27,183 bases of DNA, from positions 1 to 27,183 of IMG/VR virus record IMGVR_UViG_3300033076_001413; one strand, written 5' to 3'. Source of the stretch: a virus (lineage: Duplodnaviria; Caudoviricetes). A program made the position numbers and the translations under genes. The notes beneath the pieces are model-generated. The model was given only the letters and a program-made list of their open reading frames with translations. It ran no database searches and was not told the origin of the DNA. Position 1 is the first letter of the stretch. Each line of letters opens with the position of its first letter. Shown piece by piece: positions 1 to 27,114 of the stretch.

Positions 1-66
1 ACCACCGCATCGCCAACAGCTTTAGAGCCTCGGACACCTGCCGTTGGCTTCGGCGATTTGTTCCAC
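1..66 (-). repeat. attC: attC site (partial, truncated by window start)
   Basis: - strand reads GTGGAAC AAATC GCCGAAGCCAACGGC...; GTTCCACATCA (60-70) is the exact reverse complement of TGATGTGGAAC (441-451). Confidence 0.75.
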
Positions 67-92
67 ATCAACGTCCGAAACTGAAAACAAAT

Positions 93-443
93 ATGAATGA
101 AACAACCGAAAAACTAATCCGTGACCTCGCCGAAAAACTCGGCACAACAGCCGAACACCTGTGGGGTGTCCTCATCCGCCAAGCGCCAATCACTGCTATC
201 ACCGACCTGCTCCAAGTCCTGATACTCGCAGCGGTGTGCGTGTATGGAGGTCGCCGCCTGATGCGATGGCACAAGAAACTGCAAGAATCGGGCGATGCTG
301 ACCATCCAGGATTCGTGCTGACCTACATCGGCTTCGTGGTGCTGCTCTGCATCACAATCATCTGCGCGCTTTGTAGCGTGTCTGGAATAGTGACCGCCTT
401 CAATAACCCGGAATACTGGGCACTCAAGCAAATCGTGAAATGA
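93..443 (+). CDS. Cassette 1 gene: small membrane protein (2 predicted TM helices), phage hypothetical
   Basis: 116 aa ORF with two hydrophobic stretches and C-terminal NPEYWAL; A-rich sequence before the ATG. Confidence 0.8.
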   Translation: MNETTEKLIRDLAEKLGTTAEHLWGVLIRQAPITAITDLLQVLILAAVCVYGGRRLMRWHKKLQESGDADHPGFVLTYIGFVVLLCITIICALCSVSGIVTAFNNPEYWALKQIVK

Positions 444-487
444 TGTGGAACGCCAAGCTCAGCGACGGCGCGAAAACCTATGAGTGA
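443..487 (+). CDS. Putative 14-aa relay mini-ORF (MWNAKLSDGAKTYE) crossing into attC
   Basis: TGATG overlap with the upstream stop at 441-445; its TGA (485-487) lies just past the ATG of the next gene (480). Confidence 0.4.
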   Translation: MWNAKLSDGAKTYE

Positions 488-550
488 CGATTGCAACAAG
501 AGCGCGGAAGTGAACGGCGGCACGCCGTTCGCTGAAGCGCGTGGTTATGC
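445..550 (-). repeat. attC: attC site (106 bp)
   Basis: - strand: R'' GCATAAC, 5-nt spacer, GCTTCAGCGAACGGCG ... CGCCGTCGCTGAGC, spacer TTGGC, R' GTTCCAC; the stem has two extrahelical bases. Confidence 0.9.
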
Positions 551-737
551 CGCACACGTCCGCCGACTCCAAGAGCAGAACCGCCTGCTGGCCGAGTGCC
601 TCGCGGACGAAAGGCGACTCCGCAAGCAAGCCTATGCGTGGTATCAGAAGCGACTCCAAAGCCGCTGGTGGTCACTGATGGATATGGTGCTGCTTTCTGT
701 GCGGCATAACGTCCGAGATGAGCCACGCGGGAAATAA
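480..737 (+). CDS. Cassette 2 gene: hypothetical coiled-coil protein (85 aa)
   Basis: ATG lies in the attC loop (480); TAA lies inside the next attC, 1 nt before the next ATG. Confidence 0.65.
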   Translation: MSDDCNKSAEVNGGTPFAEARGYAAHVRRLQEQNRLLAECLADERRLRKQAYAWYQKRLQSRWWSLMDMVLLSVRHNVRDEPRGK

Positions 738-793
738 TATGAGCACCACCAAAAAAGCAGCGAGCCGCGTTGGCTCTGGGGAGTTGGTTCGGC
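704..793 (-). repeat. attC: attC site (90 bp)
   Basis: - strand: GCCGAAC CAACT CCCCAGAGCCAACGCGG ... CCGCGTGGCTCATCTCGGAC GTTATGC; L boxes somewhat degenerate. Confidence 0.82.
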
Positions 794-972
794 GGCTGTG
801 GCGCGTAGAATTTCAGACGGGGTTTGTGCAATTCGAAAGCGTAATTGCCGACGAAGCATTCGCCCGCCGCTGGGCTTTGAAATCCAAAGGCGCACCGAGC
901 CACGAGCGGATCACAAAAGTCACGAGCGTCGAAGCGCCGCCGAACGACAAGCTGAGAGATGCCGCCACATGA
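739..972 (+). CDS. Cassette 3 gene: hypothetical protein (77 aa)
   Basis: ATG 739 in the attC loop right after TAA 735-737; stop forms an ATGA overlap with the next gene inside the next attC. Confidence 0.65.
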   Translation: MSTTKKAASRVGSGELVRRLWRVEFQTGFVQFESVIADEAFARRWALKSKGAPSHERITKVTSVEAPPNDKLRDAAT

Positions 973-1030
973 ACGCTCCGAATAACGCGCAAGACGCGAT
1001 GGCGGCATTCTCTCCAGCGACTGGTTCGGG
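939..1030 (-). repeat. attC: attC site (92 bp)
   Basis: - strand: R'' CCCGAAC, CAGTC, L'' GCTGGAGA, GAATGCCGCC ... GGCGGCATC, L' TCTCAGC, TTGTC, R' GTTCGGC; extrahelical G and A. Confidence 0.92.
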
Positions 1031-1622
1031 GACGGTCGTAAACAAATTTCGCGTTGATGATGCAAGGGTAGCATGTCCGCTTTTCCAAGCGGAACACGGC
1101 GGTTCGACTCCGACCTCAACGCTCCAATTCCGAATCGTGGAAATCGAGATGCGACGGGCAGCGCAACTGAATCGGCAGTGGCATAGCGTGCTGCCGAAAA
1201 CCTACCTCGCAAACCTCAACGGCAACATCTGCAAGGTCGCGTATGCGGCAGAGTTCGAGGGCGTGGCATACGCGGTGGCAATCTGGACGACTCCAATCGC
1301 GGCAAACCGCATGGCCGATGGGTGGAATGCGCTCGAACTCCGTCGGCTGGCAATCGCTGACGATGCTCCAAAGAACACGGCAAGCCGGATGCTGGCCGTG
1401 ATGACTCGACTGATAAAAGCCAAGTGGCCGCAAATCAATCGGCTTGTCAGCTACCAGGCGGAGAAACACCATGCGGGAACAATCTACAAGGCCGCCGGCT
1501 GGACGAATGCAGCGACTTCGGATGCTAAGACGTGGCATCCTGGCCGGCTGCGTGCGGCACAACAAACCGACTCCGCAAAGGTGCGCTGGGAATACACCCT
1601 GCGCGAGTCCCCGAACAAGTGA
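969..1622 (+). CDS. Cassette 4 gene: Mom-like (XF1762-type, GNAT-fold) DNA adenine hypermodification protein; alternative starts GTG 1137 / ATG 1149
   Basis: Motifs LNRQWH, ELRRLAI.DDAPKN.ASR, LVSY, H.GTIYKAAGW and K.RW are typical of Mom-family proteins. Confidence 0.8.
   Translation: MNAPNNAQDAMAAFSPATGSGTVVNKFRVDDARVACPLFQAEHGGSTPTSTLQFRIVEIEMRRAAQLNRQWHSVLPKTYLANLNGNICKVAYAAEFEGVAYAVAIWTTPIAANRMADGWNALELRRLAIADDAPKNTASRMLAVMTRLIKAKWPQINRLVSYQAEKHHAGTIYKAAGWTNAATSDAKTWHPGRLRAAQQTDSAKVRWEYTLRESPNK
1051..1126 (+). tRNA. Non-canonical tRNA-Gly-like element (8-nt anticodon loop, bulged T-stem, encoded CCA)
   Basis: Acceptor GCGTTGA/TCAACGC, D-stem ATGC/GCAT, anticodon stem TCCGC/GCGGA with loop TTTTCCAA, T-arm GGCGG-TTCGACT-CCG(A)CC, discriminator T + CCA. 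Confidence 0.8.
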
Positions 1623-1628
1623 TTAGGC
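1610..1628 (-). other. attI: attI core site
   Basis: - strand GCCTAAT-CACTT-GTTCGGG = L box, 5-nt spacer, R box. GTCCCCGAAC (1607-1616) is the reverse complement of GTTCGGGGAC (1024-1033), yet no attC hairpin follows. Confidence 0.8.
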
Positions 1629-1644
1629 AACCACTCATTGCTAT

Positions 1645-2595
1645 ATGAAACAAAGCCAAGCGATTGATAAGTTCCGTGATTACATGCGGTTGAAACATTT
1701 GGCGCTGTCCACGGAGCAGAGCTATCTGGCGTGGCTGGCGCGGTATATGCGCTTTCTGGCAGGGGAGGCGGTGGAGGGCATGACGGGAGAGCAGAAGGTG
1801 GAGGCGTTTCTGTCGCACTTGGCGCGGCAGGATGTTTCGGCGTCGACGCAGAATCAGGCGTTTAATGCGCTGGTGATGTTTTATCGGGAGATCGTGGGGC
1901 AACCGTTGGCGCGGATTGATGCGTTGCGGGCCAACAAGCCGGTGACGTTGCGCGAGTCGCCAAGCCGGGAAGAGGTGCGGGCATTGCTGGCCAACGTCAA
2001 GGATGTGCATGGGTATCCGACGCGGTTGATCACTCATCTGATTTACGGGTGCGGGCTGCGGGTCACGGAACCATGCAATTTGCGGGTCAAGGATGTGGAG
2101 TTGCAGAATCAACGGCTCGTCATTCGCGGAGCCAAGGGGGGCAAGGATCGCGTGGTGCCGTTGCCGTGCTCGTTGCACGCCGGTCTGCGGGATGCGTTGG
2201 AGGCGGCAAAGGTGGTGTGGAAACAGGACGTGAAGGACGGTTTGCCGCTGCAATTGCCGGGACTGTTGGCCAAGAAGTATCCGCAAAGCCGGTTCGCGTG
2301 GAAATGGGCGTGGGTGTTCCCTCAAAAGTCGGCGTGTGAACATCCGCGAACGGGTGAGTTGGTGCGGTATCGGCTGCACGAAGCCAACGTGCAATTGGCT
2401 ATTCGGAGGGCGAGCGGCGGGAACATCAAGCCGCACGAGTTGCGACACGCCTACGCGACGCATTGCTTGAATCAGGGCACGAATCCGCGCGCTATCCAGC
2501 AGGCGATGGGGCACAAGTCTTTGGAAACGACGATGGGGTATCTACACGCGGAGGCGATGAGCGTCCGGAGTCCGTTGGAGGTAGTGAACGTATGA
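1645..2595 (+). CDS. intI: Integron integrase (tyrosine recombinase)
   Basis: N-terminal STQNQAFNAL, YGCGLRVTE, KGGKDR, integron-specific insertion LPGLLAKKYP...WAWVFP, HELRH, GHKSLETTMGY. Confidence 0.95.
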   Translation: MKQSQAIDKFRDYMRLKHLALSTEQSYLAWLARYMRFLAGEAVEGMTGEQKVEAFLSHLARQDVSASTQNQAFNALVMFYREIVGQPLARIDALRANKPVTLRESPSREEVRALLANVKDVHGYPTRLITHLIYGCGLRVTEPCNLRVKDVELQNQRLVIRGAKGGKDRVVPLPCSLHAGLRDALEAAKVVWKQDVKDGLPLQLPGLLAKKYPQSRFAWKWAWVFPQKSACEHPRTGELVRYRLHEANVQLAIRRASGGNIKPHELRHAYATHCLNQGTNPRAIQQAMGHKSLETTMGYLHAEAMSVRSPLEVVNV

Positions 2596-3770
2596 GCACG
2601 GCGATGCGCTACAAGGACGCCAATGAATGTTTGCAGGCGGGGGTGCCGGTGGAGGTGATGACGGCGTGTCTGCACAATGCCGAGGTCATCACGCCGGAAC
2701 GGTTGCGCGGCATCTACGATTTCGAGCAGGAGATTTGGGAGAAGTTTCACAGCACGGGCCGGGAGCAATTGGGTTACGTGTTGCCGTGGGGCAATTCCCA
2801 CAACAGCAGTCTGCCGTTCCGGTTTCGCATGGGCGAGGTGACGGTGTGGACGGGGCACAACGGCCACGGCAAGAGCCAGGTGTTGAACCATGTGATCGTG
2901 GATCTGGCGTGGCAAGGGTTGCGCTCGCTCATTTGCAGTTTTGAGATGAGCGCACCGGAGACGTATCGGCGGCTCATCCGCATGGTGCGCGCGGAGGCGA
3001 AGCCGGCGGAATGTTCGCGCGAGGAATTCCGGGCGCGATGCCTCACGCCCCTTTCGGACAAGGTGTGGGTTTACGATCATGTGGGCATGGCGGAACTGGT
3101 GGACGTGCTGGACATCGCCCGCTACGCGCGGCGCCGTTACAACGTGCGGATCGTGGTGATCGATTCCCTGATGTGCCTGAAGGTGCTGAGTGACGAGGAC
3201 AAATACACGGAGCAAAAGAACTTCATGAACGCGCTGACGAGCTTCGCGGCGGAGAACCAGATGCATCTCATCCTCGTGGCGCATTCCAAGAAGCTCGATG
3301 TGAAGGGGAACAAGGAACATCACATCCCGCGCAAGTATGACATCGCGGGCAGTGCGGACATTTCCAACCTCGCGTGGAACGTGTGCATCATCTGGCGCAA
3401 CAAGAAGAAGGAGGAACGCTTGCGCGAGCTGTGGGACGAATGCGCGTTGCGCGCGGGCAAAAGCAGCCACGCCATGACGCCGGAGGATTTCAACAAGAAC
3501 TACACGATGGAGGAGAAGGAGGAGATCGAGCAGTTGTTGGGCGATAAGGATGCGTATTTCCTCGTGGACAAACAGCGCGGCGGCGAGGGCGATGAGCTGG
3601 GGCGCAACCTGTGGTTTCACAAGAACAGTTTGCAATATCTGGAACAGCCGTATCACAAGGGCGGGCGTCCCTCGAAATACTGGCAGATGAAGGTGGCGCT
3701 GAACGAGGGCGAGGAATTGGAACGGGCCGGCGCGGAGCCGGTGTTTGAGACGGGGGAAGGGGCGTTGTAG
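2592..3770 (+). CDS. SF4 replicative helicase (T7 gp4/Twinkle-like) lacking most of the primase domain
   Basis: Walker A TGHNGHGKS, Walker B VVIDSL, LVAH, DIAGSADISN; N-terminal KDANE; ATGA overlap with the intI stop. Confidence 0.88.
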   Translation: MSTAMRYKDANECLQAGVPVEVMTACLHNAEVITPERLRGIYDFEQEIWEKFHSTGREQLGYVLPWGNSHNSSLPFRFRMGEVTVWTGHNGHGKSQVLNHVIVDLAWQGLRSLICSFEMSAPETYRRLIRMVRAEAKPAECSREEFRARCLTPLSDKVWVYDHVGMAELVDVLDIARYARRRYNVRIVVIDSLMCLKVLSDEDKYTEQKNFMNALTSFAAENQMHLILVAHSKKLDVKGNKEHHIPRKYDIAGSADISNLAWNVCIIWRNKKKEERLRELWDECALRAGKSSHAMTPEDFNKNYTMEEKEEIEQLLGDKDAYFLVDKQRGGEGDELGRNLWFHKNSLQYLEQPYHKGGRPSKYWQMKVALNEGEELERAGAEPVFETGEGAL

Positions 3771-3807
3771 GCCACAGGGAACACAGAGAACACGGAGAAC
3801 TGAAACG

Positions 3808-3999
3808 ATGAAGACGATGCGATATACGACGAGGGAGGGGAAGGTTTGGACGGTCACGGAGTGTGCGCCGCTGGCGATGCACCCCGGTTTCTGGCTCGGG
3901 TTCCGTCAGCCGGACGGGCAACAGGTGCTGATTCATGAGCATCGGGCGGTGGAGGTGCGGGGACAGGAACAGAAGGAAACGAAGGAAGCAAAGGTATGA
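3808..3999 (+). CDS. Hypothetical protein (63 aa)
   Basis: Short ORF whose stop overlaps the next ATG (ATGA). Confidence 0.55.
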   Translation: MKTMRYTTREGKVWTVTECAPLAMHPGFWLGFRQPDGQQVLIHEHRAVEVRGQEQKETKEAKV

Positions 4000-4622
4000 A
4001 GGAACGACCGATTTTGTTTAGTGGACCGATGGTGCGGGCGATTCTGGAGGGACGGAAGACGCAGACGCGGCGCATCGTGAAACCGCAGCCGGTGGAAACG
4101 GAGTGGCGCAGAATTGCGTGTCCCTACGGGCAGCCGGGGGATCGGTTGTGGGTGAAGGAGACGTTTGCGACCAAGCAAGTCAAGGGACTGACCATTGCCT
4201 CAACCAAACCCAATGATCCGGAGGCGGAAATGTTAGCCAGGGCAACGCATCGTTTTCGAGCGTATCGAGCTGACCAGTGGGAAAATGACGAGGTGCCAGA
4301 GGGGATGACGTGGCGTCCGTCCATCTACATGCCGCGGTGGGCGTCGCGGTTGACGCTGGCAATTGTGCGGGTGCGCGTGGAGCGGTTGCAGGACATCACG
4401 GAGGAGGATGCCATTGCTGAAGGAAGCCAAGAACCGGCGCTGGTTCCGATTGTCGGAGCGTGCCTTACGGAGCGAGCGGTTTACGCCAAGCTGTGGGAGG
4501 CCATCAACGGCGCGGGCTCGTGGGCGCTGAATCCGTGGGTGTGGGTGGTGGAGTTTAAGAGGGTGGAGCGGGAGGAGACGCGGGGACGCGGGGACGCGGA
4601 GAGGGAGGAGCGGGCGCGATGA
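3996..4622 (+). CDS. ASCH/PUA-like conserved phage protein
   Basis: MKERPILFSGPMVRAILEGRKTQTRR, CPYGQPGDRLWV, WRPSI.MPRWASR, VERLQDI, NPWVWV.EF. Confidence 0.85.
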   Translation: MKERPILFSGPMVRAILEGRKTQTRRIVKPQPVETEWRRIACPYGQPGDRLWVKETFATKQVKGLTIASTKPNDPEAEMLARATHRFRAYRADQWENDEVPEGMTWRPSIYMPRWASRLTLAIVRVRVERLQDITEEDAIAEGSQEPALVPIVGACLTERAVYAKLWEAINGAGSWALNPWVWVVEFKRVEREETRGRGDAEREERAR

Positions 4623-4987
4623 AATCGATTGAACAGTTTCCGGGCGACGAGATGGAGCTGCGGCAGCGGTTGCCGGAGTTCAAGGAGGAAACGCGGGATG
4701 CGCTCATCCGCTGGGGTGAGGTGCAGCCGGGCGCCTTGCCGTGGTTGCTGAAGCGGAGCGCGAAGTATTGGGAGCACTTAAGCATCGCCCAACGGCAACA
4801 CGCCGCGGATGGCTGGAGCTTGGTGTGCGATGCGACGGCGGCGCTGGATTTGTTGCGCTGGCGGATTGAGGCGAAGGATGACCGCGCGGCGGTGCAACAT
4901 CTCACGGCGCCGGAATTCACCTCACCCCGGCCCTCTCCCCATGCTGCGCACGCGGAGAGGGAAAAAAACCTGAAACCTGTCCCCTGA
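4619..4987 (+). CDS. Hypothetical protein
   Basis: 122 aa ORF with ATGA coupling; no recognised motif. Confidence 0.6.
   Translation: MKSIEQFPGDEMELRQRLPEFKEETRDALIRWGEVQPGALPWLLKRSAKYWEHLSIAQRQHAADGWSLVCDATAALDLLRWRIEAKDDRAAVQHLTAPEFTSPRPSPHAAHAEREKNLKPVP
4920..4961. repeat. REP-like hairpin (CCTCACCCCGGCCCTCTCC...GGAGAGGG type)
   Basis: CCCTCTCC / GGAGAGGG inverted repeat with the typical CCTCACCCCGG leader. Confidence 0.6.
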
Positions 4988-5004
4988 CTCCTGCCGCCTG
5001 ACCC

Positions 5005-7432: not shown

Positions 7433-7457
7433 AGAGAAAGAGACACGAATTCCACGA

Positions 7458-7760
7458 ATGAACACGAATATGAAACAGAAGCGGGCGAAGGGAACGAAGA
7501 GGGCCGAGGCGAAGGAGTTGATTGACCAGTGGGGCAGGTTGCGATTTCTGGCGCTCAAGGCCGCGATGGATTGCCAGTTGACCACGCTACGCCTGGGCGT
7601 GTTGAAAATGCGCTTGGCGGAGGCCAGCAAATCCCCGTTGGCAGTGGCACTGCTGGCGGAGCTGGACATCACGCTGAAGGAACAGGAGCCCGTGGCAAAG
7701 GATTTGAACGAACTAGGCGACCGGATACTGGCGTTGCAAGTCAGGGTGAGTAATCCATGA
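7458..7760 (+). CDS. Hypothetical helical protein (start may be 7470)
   Basis: About 100 aa amphipathic-helix ORF flanked by a 19-bp inverted repeat. Confidence 0.6.
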   Translation: MNTNMKQKRAKGTKRAEAKELIDQWGRLRFLALKAAMDCQLTTLRLGVLKMRLAEASKSPLAVALLAELDITLKEQEPVAKDLNELGDRILALQVRVSNP

Positions 7761-9997: not shown

Positions 9998-10041
9998 GGA
10001 AGAGACGCGGAGACGCGGAGAAACTAAGACACGGAGAAATT

Positions 10042-11633: not shown

Positions 11634-12653
11634 ATGCCAGTCATCCAAGAAATCACGCAAAAGGGCCATCCTCGTTCGTTGGCCAACCTCATCGCCAACA
11701 TCGAGAGCGAAGGTTGCCCGTATCTCTCGATGATTCGCCGCGGCATGAGGCCCAAGCAGGCCAAGCATGAGTGGCAGGTGAAGGTTTACCCGCGCGTGGG
11801 CCACGGCGGCGTGCGCGATGGCGTGGATGCCACCACGTTCCAGAGCAACCCCCGCGAAGAACTCGCGGTGTATGCGCAGAAAAGCTGGTATAACCCCGGC
11901 GTCTCGGACTTCGCCGAGGAAGCGGAAGTGGCCGGACTCGCCAAGGGCGAATTTGCGGAGCAAGTGGCCGATGCCTTCGTGGCGGTGAAACGCATCCAGG
12001 AAATGCGCGCGCTGTCCAACAGCGACACCAAGCTGGAGAACGGCACCACCACGCCGTATGAAACGCGTGGCATCTTCTCGTGGCTGTCCAGCAGCGCACA
12101 AACCGCGTTGCCGGTGCCGGAAGCGTTCCGCGTTCCAACCGGGCAGATTCTTGGTTCCTCCGCCGGTGCCTCGCTGGCGGATTTCTCGGAGCAGAAATTC
12201 ATCGATGCCTGTGCGTCCAGCTACATCACCCGCAAGGGCACGTATGCCATGCACACGTTCCTTGGCGTGAAGCTCAAGGCGAAGTTCACCAACTTTGCCG
12301 GTTACGTGGACAACATTGCGAACACCACGCCGATCCGCCGTTACAACCAGGACGCCGACAGCAAGACGCTGGTGCGCGTGATCGACAAGCTGGTGCTCGA
12401 TTCCGGTGAACATCTCCTGCATCTCACGCCGTTCCTGCTGTGCGACGCCACGACCGGCCTCGACACCGAATACACGCACCGCTCCGGTTTCAGCGTGGAC
12501 CTGAACATGGCGTTCCTCGCCTACACCCGCGAGCCGCGCATTGTGAATTTGCCCTACAAGGGCGGCGGCAAGAAGGCGATCGTGGATACGATTTTCCTCC
12601 ACGGCCTCGAAAACGTGCAGGGCGGTATTGCGATGCAATACAACGCCGACTGA
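11634..12653 (+). CDS. Major capsid protein (SU10/DUF5309-like)
   Basis: 339 aa; HEWQ, GVD, Y.QK, VSD.AE, KR..E, TRGI..W pattern; strongly C/G-ending codon usage. Confidence 0.8.
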   Translation: MPVIQEITQKGHPRSLANLIANIESEGCPYLSMIRRGMRPKQAKHEWQVKVYPRVGHGGVRDGVDATTFQSNPREELAVYAQKSWYNPGVSDFAEEAEVAGLAKGEFAEQVADAFVAVKRIQEMRALSNSDTKLENGTTTPYETRGIFSWLSSSAQTALPVPEAFRVPTGQILGSSAGASLADFSEQKFIDACASSYITRKGTYAMHTFLGVKLKAKFTNFAGYVDNIANTTPIRRYNQDADSKTLVRVIDKLVLDSGEHLLHLTPFLLCDATTGLDTEYTHRSGFSVDLNMAFLAYTREPRIVNLPYKGGGKKAIVDTIFLHGLENVQGGIAMQYNAD

Positions 12654-20314: not shown

Positions 20315-20829
20315 GGACACTGGTTTTGAGTTTGGGGTTTTGGGTTTTGAGTTTGGCGACCATGCGAGCGGAGGTGCCGCCGCAGCAGTCGCTGACGTTT
20401 GCGTGGGATGCGCCGACCAATACGCCGGGGCCGTTCACTTACAAGATGTATAAGGTGCAGGACGGCGTGACGAACCTCCTGTGGAGCACGACGAACACGA
20501 CGGGTGTCGTCAGCAACCTGACGCCCACGGCGTTCCGAGTGTTTGTGACAGCGAGCAATGAGCGCGGGGAATCTGACCCGTCCATTCCGGTGGTGCTGCC
20601 GGCGTTCCCGAATCCGCCGACGAAGCTCAAGCCAGTCTCCACCACGTTCCGGGTGGTGCCGCCGGTGTCGTTTGAGAAGACGGAGGATCTGATTTCTTGG
20701 GACGAACGGTTTCGGCTGTTCCGACCGGACAGCAACGGGGTGCAGGTGGTGATGCAGACAATTCATCCAGGAGAGCCGTTTGCGTTTTATCGGGTGAGAC
20801 CGGAGGCGCGGCCGGGGATGCCGAGGTGA
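20311..20829 (+). CDS. Fibronectin type III domain protein with signal peptide
   Basis: GTGA overlap; LTFAWD.P, VSNLTP, VTASN..GES.PS; C-terminal TEDLISW...FYRV. Confidence 0.75.
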   Translation: MRTLVLSLGFWVLSLATMRAEVPPQQSLTFAWDAPTNTPGPFTYKMYKVQDGVTNLLWSTTNTTGVVSNLTPTAFRVFVTASNERGESDPSIPVVLPAFPNPPTKLKPVSTTFRVVPPVSFEKTEDLISWDERFRLFRPDSNGVQVVMQTIHPGEPFAFYRVRPEARPGMPR

Positions 20830-20856
20830 GACACGAATTTCACGAAGTGACACGAA

Positions 20857-21120
20857 ATGCCCAAGCATAATTTCAAGCGGGACCACAGGGCGCACGGCGG
20901 GCCGGTGTTGAGCATGTGCAACACGGCACCATCGTTCTCGGAGTTCATGAAGGATTTTGAGGAACGCTGGAAACAGAAGTGCGAGGCGATGGGGTATGAC
21001 GACGAGGTGACGGCGCAGGAGGAACACCGGTTGCCCGTGCGCAGCACCAAAGAGATTCAGGCGGAGGTAATGACGGAGAACGCTTTGGCGGTGAAACGTA
21101 ACACTAGGGGAATCAGATAA
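20857..21120 (+). CDS. Hypothetical protein
   Basis: 87 aa ORF with TAATG coupling to the next gene. Confidence 0.55.
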   Translation: MPKHNFKRDHRAHGGPVLSMCNTAPSFSEFMKDFEERWKQKCEAMGYDDEVTAQEEHRLPVRSTKEIQAEVMTENALAVKRNTRGIR

Positions 21121-25939: not shown

Positions 25940-26977
25940 ATGGCAAGCGACAGCATCGGAACGGACATGGCGCTGGCCGGGTTATCCGGCGGCACGTCAT
26001 CCATCATCGACATGTTCAGCGGCAAGATGCCTTTCTCCGGCCTTTTCGGTGGGAAGGAGAAACCCAAGCCGTGGGCCAAGATGCCCGGCGGACGCAATGA
26101 GTATCGCGGCAAGAAACTGCTCAATGCCTACAACGCGCTCCTGCCCGGCACGCTGGACATCACGCGCAAATCGAGCGAAGGCTTTGGCGACATCTACCGG
26201 GCGGAAGCAGAGAAGACGCGCGCGGAGGATCTTTCGAGCTTCCAGAAATACGGACCGGCCTACGCCAAGGCGATTAGCGAAGCGGACCCGTATCAGGCTG
26301 AGTTGCGCAGTCTCATCAACAGCATCGTGATGGATGAACTGAATGCGGGTGGGGACTTGAGCCCGGCGCAATTGCGGCTGACGCAACAGACCACGCGCGG
26401 CGCCCAGGCGGCCCGCGGCATGGGCTTTGGCATGGGCGACAGCTTGCGCGAAGTGCTTGGCACGCTCGATTACAGCCGCGGACTCAAGAACGAACGGCTG
26501 AACAACGCGCTTCAGGTGGGCAACTTCAACCAGCGCGTGGTGGGTGACCCGTTCATGGCGTTCTCCGGACGGCCCTCGCAACCGCAGGGCAGCAACGTGA
26601 TGGCGCCGCAGTATTCGGATTTCAACAATGACTTGTCGTCGTTCATGGCCAACGACGAAATGATGGCGTTCAACGCCGGACAGAACAGCAAGAACCGCAC
26701 AAGCGCCATGGTGGGCGCGGGCATTGGTGCGCTGGGCAGCATTGCCGGCGGTGCCATGCTGTGCTGGGTGGCGCGAGCGGTGTATGGCGAGGAAAACCCG
26801 TTGTGGCAGAAGTTCCGCGACTGGCTCACCACCAAGGCGCCCGAGGACGTGCGCGACCTCTACATCACCATCGGCCCGAAGCTGGCCGAGCGCGTGGCGC
26901 AACGCCCGAAACTCAAGGCCGCGCTGCGGCGGGTGATGGATGAGAAGATTGCGGAAATGGAATTCAACCACGGATGA
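25940..26977 (+). CDS. Putative ejection (DNA transfer) protein with C-terminal CWVAR domain
   Basis: AQAARGMG, Gly/Ala-rich GAGIGALGSIAGG segment, then CWVARAVYG..NP.W..FR.W; located after the tail genes. Confidence 0.65.
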   Translation: MASDSIGTDMALAGLSGGTSSIIDMFSGKMPFSGLFGGKEKPKPWAKMPGGRNEYRGKKLLNAYNALLPGTLDITRKSSEGFGDIYRAEAEKTRAEDLSSFQKYGPAYAKAISEADPYQAELRSLINSIVMDELNAGGDLSPAQLRLTQQTTRGAQAARGMGFGMGDSLREVLGTLDYSRGLKNERLNNALQVGNFNQRVVGDPFMAFSGRPSQPQGSNVMAPQYSDFNNDLSSFMANDEMMAFNAGQNSKNRTSAMVGAGIGALGSIAGGAMLCWVARAVYGEENPLWQKFRDWLTTKAPEDVRDLYITIGPKLAERVAQRPKLKAALRRVMDEKIAEMEFNHG

Positions 26978-27097
26978 ACACGGATAGACACGGATTATCA
27001 AAACGCTTGCAAGCCGGAGGCGGAACCGGATGGTTAAACGCTAACGATGGTAAAGTGTCCATCAGCAATCCGCGTTCATCTGTGTCCATCCGTGGTT
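26966..27097. repeat. 31-bp imperfect inverted repeat built from 10-bp tandem units
   Basis: AACCACGGATGAACACGGATAGACACGGATT (26966-26996) versus AATCCGCGTTCATCTGTGTCCATCCGTGGTT (27067-27097); 26/31 match. Confidence 0.85.
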
Positions 27098-27114
27098 AAA
27101 ACCAACTAGACTTT

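Follow-up and report, generated by a model that had tools for sequence, protein, structure and literature searches.

Integrons are regarded as bacterial adaptation devices and lately as stores of anti-phage defences. The locus described here raises the question of whether a phage can carry such a system and use it on its own genes. The locus lies at positions 1 to 2595 of a 27,183-bp virus record (IMG/VR IMGVR_UViG_3300033076_001413; Caudoviricetes), a partial phage; the whole record was analyzed and is referred to as the window. A sequence-only reading had proposed that these first 2595 bases hold a complete integron, with the integrase gene intI, an attI site, and four attC sites with their cassettes, and that the phage uses it to shuffle accessory genes. 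We find that the integron is real, complete, and resident in the phage, that it is probably active, and that its cassette genes are reversed relative to the canonical arrangement.

An intact integrase gene and its attI site

The gene intI (1645..2595, plus strand) encodes an intact protein of 316 amino acids. The integron-specific insertion reported for it was borne out: IntI matches TIGR02249 at 270.8 bits, above the cut-off of 265, and aligns with VchIntIA (PDB 2a3v; E 4e-44) across the insertion. The catalytic set of R139, K164, H264, R267, H290, and Y299 is invariant in all 55 aligned rows, that of the window included. Mapping of residues by sequence alignment indicates that IntI also retains K149, R161, K211, Y212, W221, and P234, which are pocket residues named in an earlier study (PMC3053210). 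The ratio of nonsynonymous to synonymous substitution rates (dN/dS) for intI is 0.056 against the related locus L001 and 0.096 against L002, values which indicate that the gene is under purifying selection. Related loci, designated by L numbers, come from a profile search that yielded 50 viral loci and, out of 580 genome loci, the 80 that scored best.

The attI core was identified by sequence at 1610..1628 on the minus strand, with an L box at 1622-1628, a 5-nt spacer, and an R box at 1610-1616; the motif GCCTAAT-5nt-GTT noticed earlier is present as the minus strand of 1614-1628. The predicted crossover lies between 1615 and 1616. Of 36 viral loci, 34 have an attI-like motif by a search pattern with a 3-4 nt spacer, at a median of 34 nt ahead of the intI ATG compared to 28 nt in the window. 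Both in the contigs of public sequencing runs and in related loci, the variable neighbors of attI end at its R box. A second, imperfect inverted AAC-N5 element (1627..1641, no strand assigned), likewise found by its sequence, is situated between attI and the beginning of intI. Short palindromes of this kind also occur upstream of intI in related loci, and the element is possibly an accessory IntI binding site. A promoter scan of 1-2700 found no sigma-70-like site, where only 0.9 would be expected in shuffled sequence. A search for RNA data sets that contain the sequence listed none.

The attC sites and cassettes of the array

The attC sites were located with a custom grammar of R and L boxes (seven L-box and seven stem positions) in place of a covariance model. 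Two sites on the minus strand, at 445..550 and 939..1030, fit this grammar perfectly (7/7 for L box and 7/7 for stem), with AAC at 449 and 943, respectively. Shuffled versions of 1-1620 held a mean of 0.01 perfect sites and none of 300 shuffles reached two; the grammar scan found no perfect site outside the array in the remaining 25.5 kb. A comparison of the attC sites with Rfam gave no match. The attC of cassette 1 (attC1, 939..1030) forms a canonical hairpin with a z-score of -4.08, and is the only one of the three whole sites for which the minimum-energy fold is the recombinogenic hairpin. Its top strand is the minus strand of the window and its bottom strand the plus strand, the unpaired bottom-strand bases being C and T. 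Among 44 strict phage attC sites, the unpaired bases are C in 37 and T in 40, and attC sites of the T-N6-C type are efficiently excised according to PMC3053210.

The other sites are less regular. The attC of cassette 3 (attC3, 445..550) has a competing inner hairpin (z -0.53) and is possibly a hybrid, in which two sites are joined at a 23-bp shared arm. The attC of cassette 2 (attC2, 704..793, minus strand) is degenerate, with a mismatched L box (z +1.39), and resembles a chromosomal site in L060; pairing of its R box is 0.04 in the array form and 0.68 in the circle form. A scan trained on phage attC sites overlooks attC2 as well as chromosomal sites with longer spacers. The fourth site is represented by its right arm (bottom-strand view) at 1..66 on the minus strand, recognizable from its sequence and cut by the contig start. 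The earlier count of four attC sites accordingly holds for three whole sites, and we rejected the possibility that all four are complete.

Cassette 1 (945..1615, plus strand, 671 bp) adjoins attI and carries a Mom-like DNA modification gene at 969..1622 on the plus strand (PF25680, E 1.3e-13; phrog_1384, E 1e-19). Mom protects phage DNA from restriction. Cassette 2 (710..944, plus strand, 235 bp) contains an open reading frame (ORF) at 718-972 (or 739-972), and cassette 3 (451..709, plus strand, 259 bp) contains one at 480-737, neither with a family match. The body of cassette 4 (60..450, plus strand) contains an ORF at 93-443 that belongs to a phage membrane protein family (phrog_1486, E 4.1e-14), such that two of the four cassette ORFs have a family match. 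The unit lengths of 671, 235, and 259 bp given by the sequence-only reading are correct. It had also described complementary cassette ends, and all four pairs are exact reverse complements: 60-70/441-451 (11 bp, cassette 4), 544-556/698-710 (13 bp), 787-796/936-945 (10 bp), and 1024-1033/1607-1616 (10 bp, cassette 1). Such complementarity extends over at least 7 bp in 74 of 89 cassettes and over at least 10 bp in 44 of them; a control that compared the two ends of the same site gave 8 and 0, and shuffling gave means of 7.0 and 0.7. It is the cassette, and not the site, that has complementary ends. R-box pairing is predicted to be higher in the circle form for 88 of 91 cassettes (medians of 0.94 versus 0.25), a difference that arises partly by construction.

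Several related loci have attC sites in other settings. Extra attC sites occur away from the main array, approximately 1.9 kb after intI in L010, 8-9 kb after it in L003, and 1.6-3.2 kb after it in L039, one of them in the opposite orientation; this suggests second arrays within the same phages. In L004 (1-865) an attC array leads into an intI fragment from which the first 238 codons are missing, and this appears to be a phage integron in decay. In L054 (4460-5860) a transposase of the IS110 family is inserted within an attC site of a chromosomal array.

Linkage of the integron to phage genes

The integron is linked to hallmark genes of phages. A DnaB-like/primase-helicase phage gene (2592..3770, plus strand; phrog_239, E 3.4e-60) follows intI directly, its start overlapping the intI stop in the ATGA at 2592-2595 as previously described. 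A major capsid protein gene (11634..12653, plus strand; PF17236 SU10_MCP, E 5.1e-27; phrog_1328) and a terminase-like gene (weak match) are found further on in the window. Contigs of public run X1 match 969-2439 with one difference and 2411-2918 with none, the latter bridging the passage from intI into the helicase gene. A chimeric assembly had been named among the objections to an integron inside a phage; this junction is not a chimera.

The left flank of the array lies beyond the contig start in the window, and is phage-like in relatives. In a scan of 20 loci, with up to four large ORFs per side, PHROG matches flank the integron on both sides in 12 loci and on one side in 8. Direct terminal repeats were found in 4 of 15 viral records checked, which argues against host flanks, and the two nearest IntI relatives (94% and 89% identity) are both in records with such repeats. 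The backbones of the integron-bearing phages differ; the window shares little with L001 and L002 beyond the region from attI to intI, Mu-like transposition genes are present in four loci, and L002 and L014 have a separate integrase. Searches for a phage with the same backbone and no integron gave distant relatives only (helicase 31%, one locus; capsid 34%, two loci).

Reversed polarity of the cassette genes

All four cassette ORFs lie on the bottom strand of attC and read toward intI, a point absent from the sequence-only reading. The orientation of attC relative to intI is regular, since the unpaired bases place the bottom strand on the plus strand of the window; what departs from the canonical layout, in which top-strand ORFs are read from the cassette promoter Pc away from intI, is the direction of the ORFs. 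Three of the four start within one attC and stop within the next site, be it attC or attI. The Mom-like ORF starts within attC1 and stops within attI, and ORF 480-737 starts in the loop of attC3 and stops within attC2. From cassette 4 to the helicase gene, the gaps in the chain of ORFs are 36, -20, -4, 22, and -4 nt.

The same polarity prevails among the phage relatives, as measured by the strand of the longest ORF, which is a noisy measure; near-duplicate loci (L005, L016, L028, L033, and L049) were left out. Of 111 cassette-like segments from 36 viral loci of at least 46% identity, 104 have their longest ORF on the bottom strand, as do 4 of 5 from more distant viral loci. For 68 genome loci below 45% identity the count is 3 of 26 segments, and for three downstream arrays it is 3 of 17. 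Of 6 segments from genome loci of at least 45% identity, 5 have this polarity, and all of these belong to L062. Annotation of the bottom-strand ORFs provides independent support for the reversed polarity: PHROG matches were obtained for 31 of 125 such ORFs (127 less two duplicates), and among these 31 are 14 DNA methyltransferases, two PAPS reductases, one Mom, and one HNH protein. Reading frame is constrained as well: of 52 ORFs that extend beyond R', 50 have the AAC in frame, and 35 share a single frame at R''. Two genome-binned loci, L062 (a Luteolibacter contig) and L055, have the phage-type layout with a short spacer and bottom-strand genes, and are possibly prophages or binned phage contigs.

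Rearrangement of the cassettes

Judging from assemblies, the cassettes move as units bounded between the AA and the C of the AAC, as evidenced by duplicates and alternative positions. Exact duplicates running from AAC to AAC are found in L003 (254 bp), L036 (368 bp), and L062 (375 bp), each with unrelated flanks, and in L003 and L036 one of the copies sits at attI. One cassette is located at attI in L015 and internally in L030. Alternative cassette orders, which had been suggested as something to look for in reads, were seen in run contigs for two cassettes of the window: a run X4 contig is identical over 1140-1616 of the Mom cassette and then enters the left arm of another attC, and a run X2 contig matches 814-946 of cassette 2 and then enters a different attC arm. 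In two X2 contigs from related lineages, attI is preceded by other cassettes, which adjoin it at 1611 and 1613. No circle junction was among the matches listed for contigs of four runs compared with 1-1700, or within the array in a comparison with 1-5000; contigs drop rare forms, making this result neutral.

A second class of junction was also observed. In runs X1 and X2 the same cassette bodies occur with different attC arms, the breakpoints being at the R'' end. In run X1, 55-546 runs on into another body, body 3 is joined to another loop before 524, and body 4 is preceded by a different attC arm before position 55. Identical attC sequences are found on different bodies in L011/L018/L021 and in L013/L018. 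Top-strand recombination or homologous exchange of similar arms could account for these patterns, as could a misjoin at the 23-bp arm that attC3 shares.

Relationship to integrons of Verrucomicrobiota

In a tree of 128 IntIs, IntI of the window falls in a branch of 51 rows (SH-aLRT 100) that comprises 40 viral rows and 11 rows from Verrucomicrobiota genomes; 10 viral rows lie outside it. A phage-specific IntI clade had been suggested as something to look for, and the branch is mostly viral. We rejected exclusivity, since IntI of this clade is found among cell genes in 5 of the 10 Verrucomicrobiota genome loci examined, chromosomal integrons included. The host of the phage is likely a verrucomicrobium. 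Among 50,697 GenBank phage records the best IntI matches have 31-36% identity. One virus, Rctr41k, has an IntI-like gene of 36% identity and no attC by the grammar scan, and was dropped.

Of 25 genome or metagenome loci, 7 (L053, L140, L145, L147, L149, L156, and L164) have a palindromic operator, TGGACA-N5-TGTCCA, upstream of intI, and 6 of 7 segments in these loci have top-strand ORFs. The phage copies lack the operator, which is present in 0 of 33 viral loci and absent from the window; the background frequency is 19 of 3460 sequence windows. We take this operator to be different from the Verrucomicrobia LexA motif. The phage copies may have lost the host promoter region and may rely on read-through from the phage operon.

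Proposed mode of action and alternative explanations

We consider it probable that the cassettes are shuffled by the phage's own integron, with reversed cassettes wired into a phage operon. The phage integron was likely derived from a chromosomal integron of Verrucomicrobiota, and the phage IntI likely excises accessory cassettes and inserts them at attI in the usual bottom-strand manner. The cassette genes are predicted to be read by the early or replication transcript of the phage, which would traverse the array and continue into intI and the helicase gene. The gene intI would have no promoter of its own and would be expressed during phage replication, when single-stranded DNA could let the attC hairpins form. 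The attC arms would double as coding sequence in fixed frames, making any cassette order translatable, and the extended end complementarity would allow an excised circle to fold better than the integrated site, favoring capture and retention. A cargo rich in DNA-modifying genes may help the phage against host restriction. The earlier proposal that the phage shuffles genes with its own integron stands in that rearrangement occurs at the IntI crossover; we infer that the phage enzyme is the agent.

Several observations weigh against this interpretation. Two of the three whole attC sites, 445-550 and 704-793, lack the canonical fold in the array, and the histidine pair that holds the T base in VchIntIA is replaced in IntI by Y/W and R. 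The contigs that reveal other cassette orders, of 166-699 nt, are not linked to this phage, and plain bottom-strand shuffling does not account for the several junctions located at R'' instead of R'. Two metagenome loci with phage-type attI have bottom-strand longest ORFs in 7 of 13 segments and a longer top-strand ORF in 6 of 13. The tree is a quick IQ-TREE search with a midpoint root, and its loci stem from a clade-derived query. There is also a host IntI belonging to this clade, and it could do the work in trans.

That last possibility is the main rival, in which the sites and cassettes are mobile, a host chromosomal IntI does most of the shuffling, and the phage intI has a minor or different job. 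It would be consistent with the Verrucomicrobiota loci that have IntI of this clade among cell genes, with the L-box sequences that host attC sites share with the phage sites, and with the recombination by IntI1 of phage CALINs (clusters of attC sites lacking an integrase) recorded in PMC9892861. We find it unlikely, given that intI is intact and under purifying selection, that it is always beside attI and the array across Mu-like, integrase-bearing, and SU10-capsid phages, and that new or duplicated cassettes are at the phage's own attI. IntI might instead serve mainly as a lysogeny integrase that inserts the whole phage via attI into a host attC, attI, or attG, the array being a by-product. 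IntI is the sole PF00589 match in G003, G004, and G005 (91-100% complete), and PMC9892861 describes a Vibrio prophage with attC sites at its boundaries. The separate integrases and Mu-like transposition genes of related loci speak against such a role, as does the lack of a host-phage junction at attI in any locus, though no systematic search was made, and we regard it as very improbable.

Concern over the origin of the array itself can be largely set aside. The array might be a piece of a host chromosomal integron at a prophage boundary or an assembly chimera, seeing that the contig ends within the fourth attC, with its left side unseen, and that run X1 differs at 1-54 and at attC3, so that the left 550 bases may hold a hybrid or misjoin. 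The run X1 contigs covering 969-2439 and 2411-2918, the terminal-repeat virus records of the nearest relatives with phage genes on both sides, and the top-strand genes of chromosomal arrays, which the array of the window does not have, leave this explanation with only a slight chance of being correct. Slighter still is the chance that the hairpins are homologous boundary or translation-start modules swapped by phage recombinases, with intI a decaying passenger. The identical attC sequences on different bodies and the location of some run X1 junctions within shared right-arm sequence are as this explanation would have it; it is countered by duplicates bounded exactly at AAC with unrelated flanks, end complementarity that belongs to the cassette, conservation of the unpaired bases (C 37/44, T 40/44), and purifying selection on intI.

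Returning to shuffling by the phage's own integron, a more far-reaching version is tentative and in our view rather doubtful: that the integron has been domesticated as a gene-building machine of the phage, with the host promoter deleted, its attC arms serving as in-frame ends and couplers, shuffles rewiring the operon, and R'' exchange making cassettes. If true, shuffles of this integron would alter protein termini as well as operon wiring, and R'' exchange, by moving attC onto new bodies, would be a visible route of cassette making, a long-open question. More generally, it is phages that carry the integron machine here, phages of many unrelated types, with a cargo of predicted DNA-modifying genes, and the phage likely gathers and reorders accessory genes such as these by means of it. 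Natural attC sites here double as coding sequence, an IntI with an altered base pocket is open to direct assay, and exchanges on the R'' side, if real, would give a handle on the birth of cassettes.

Other features of the window

A tRNA-like stretch is present in the 5' part of the Mom-like ORF (1051..1126, plus strand; Rfam tRNA, 31.2 bits), for which ARAGORN calls a tRNA with an undefined anticodon. A peptide pattern matching this stretch is found in 63 of 119 Mom homologs, and a tRNA-derived or RNA-structured 5' segment seems to be a trait of the Mom family. Short intergenic units with two to three copies each are located at 3770-3810, 4570-4610, 7436-7470, 9998-10040, 20826-20860, and 26960-27105. 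The unit at 26960-27105 forms a 34-bp inverted repeat and also matches L002.

Comparison with known integrons

The phage integron has in common with canonical integrons (IntI1/attI1/attC; VchIntIA, PDB 2A3V) the IntI insertion and catalytic residues, an attI beside the 5' end of intI with intI diverging from the attC top strand, attC R and L boxes with 5-6 nt spacers and two unpaired bottom-strand bases, and units bounded between AA and C. It differs in that the phage genes occupy the bottom strand and point toward intI, such that Pc cannot drive them. PMC5027507 calls the orientation of cassettes relative to Pc essential for expression, and the phage integron breaks the rule by which genes of cassettes have to point away from the integrase. 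Further differences are that phage ORFs start or stop within attC, that only 28 nt separate attI from the intI start, that the unpaired L-box base is mostly C where the canonical base is usually G, and that the histidine pair of the T pocket is Y/W-R in the phage IntI.

Among the Verrucomicrobiota, the integrons of L053, L054, and L060, together with the metagenome locus L145, which is probably chromosomal, have IntIs 48-59% identical to that of the window, and the attI motif and attC L-box sequences in integrons of the clade are similar to those of the phage. These integrons differ from the phage form by top-strand genes, a longer spacer between attI and ATG (72 nt in L054), and, in 7 loci, the operator that is absent from viral loci.

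Integrons have been found in phages before. Qi et al. (2023; PMC9892861) surveyed 10,705 phage genomes and recovered three complete integrons, besides one In0 and 17 CALINs. The complete ones comprise a captured piece of a Vibrio chromosomal integron, mosaics of class 1 found in P1, and an integron of the Shewanella type that lies in an inactive prophage. These resemble the present case in having integron parts in phages and methyltransferase cargo; the IntIs of their complete integrons are 31-35% identical to IntI of the window, and the main text, as far as available, describes neither a phage-resident lineage nor systematically reversed genes. Searches of an open-access library gave no reversed-gene, phage-resident integron lineage, although subscription papers and supplements may hold one. 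The available portions of two sources (Cury et al., 10.1101/030866; PMC13323075) describe only regular and inverted-integrase layouts. The 'inverted integrase' integrons of Treponema and others, as presented in Cury et al. (10.1101/030866), share with the phage type the co-orientation of intI and cassette genes. That type flips intI relative to attC, whereas the phage type flips the ORFs within the cassettes and leaves intI and attC in their regular relation. Integrons in phages are already published (PMC9892861), and the reversed, operon-wired form appears to be a new variant of them.

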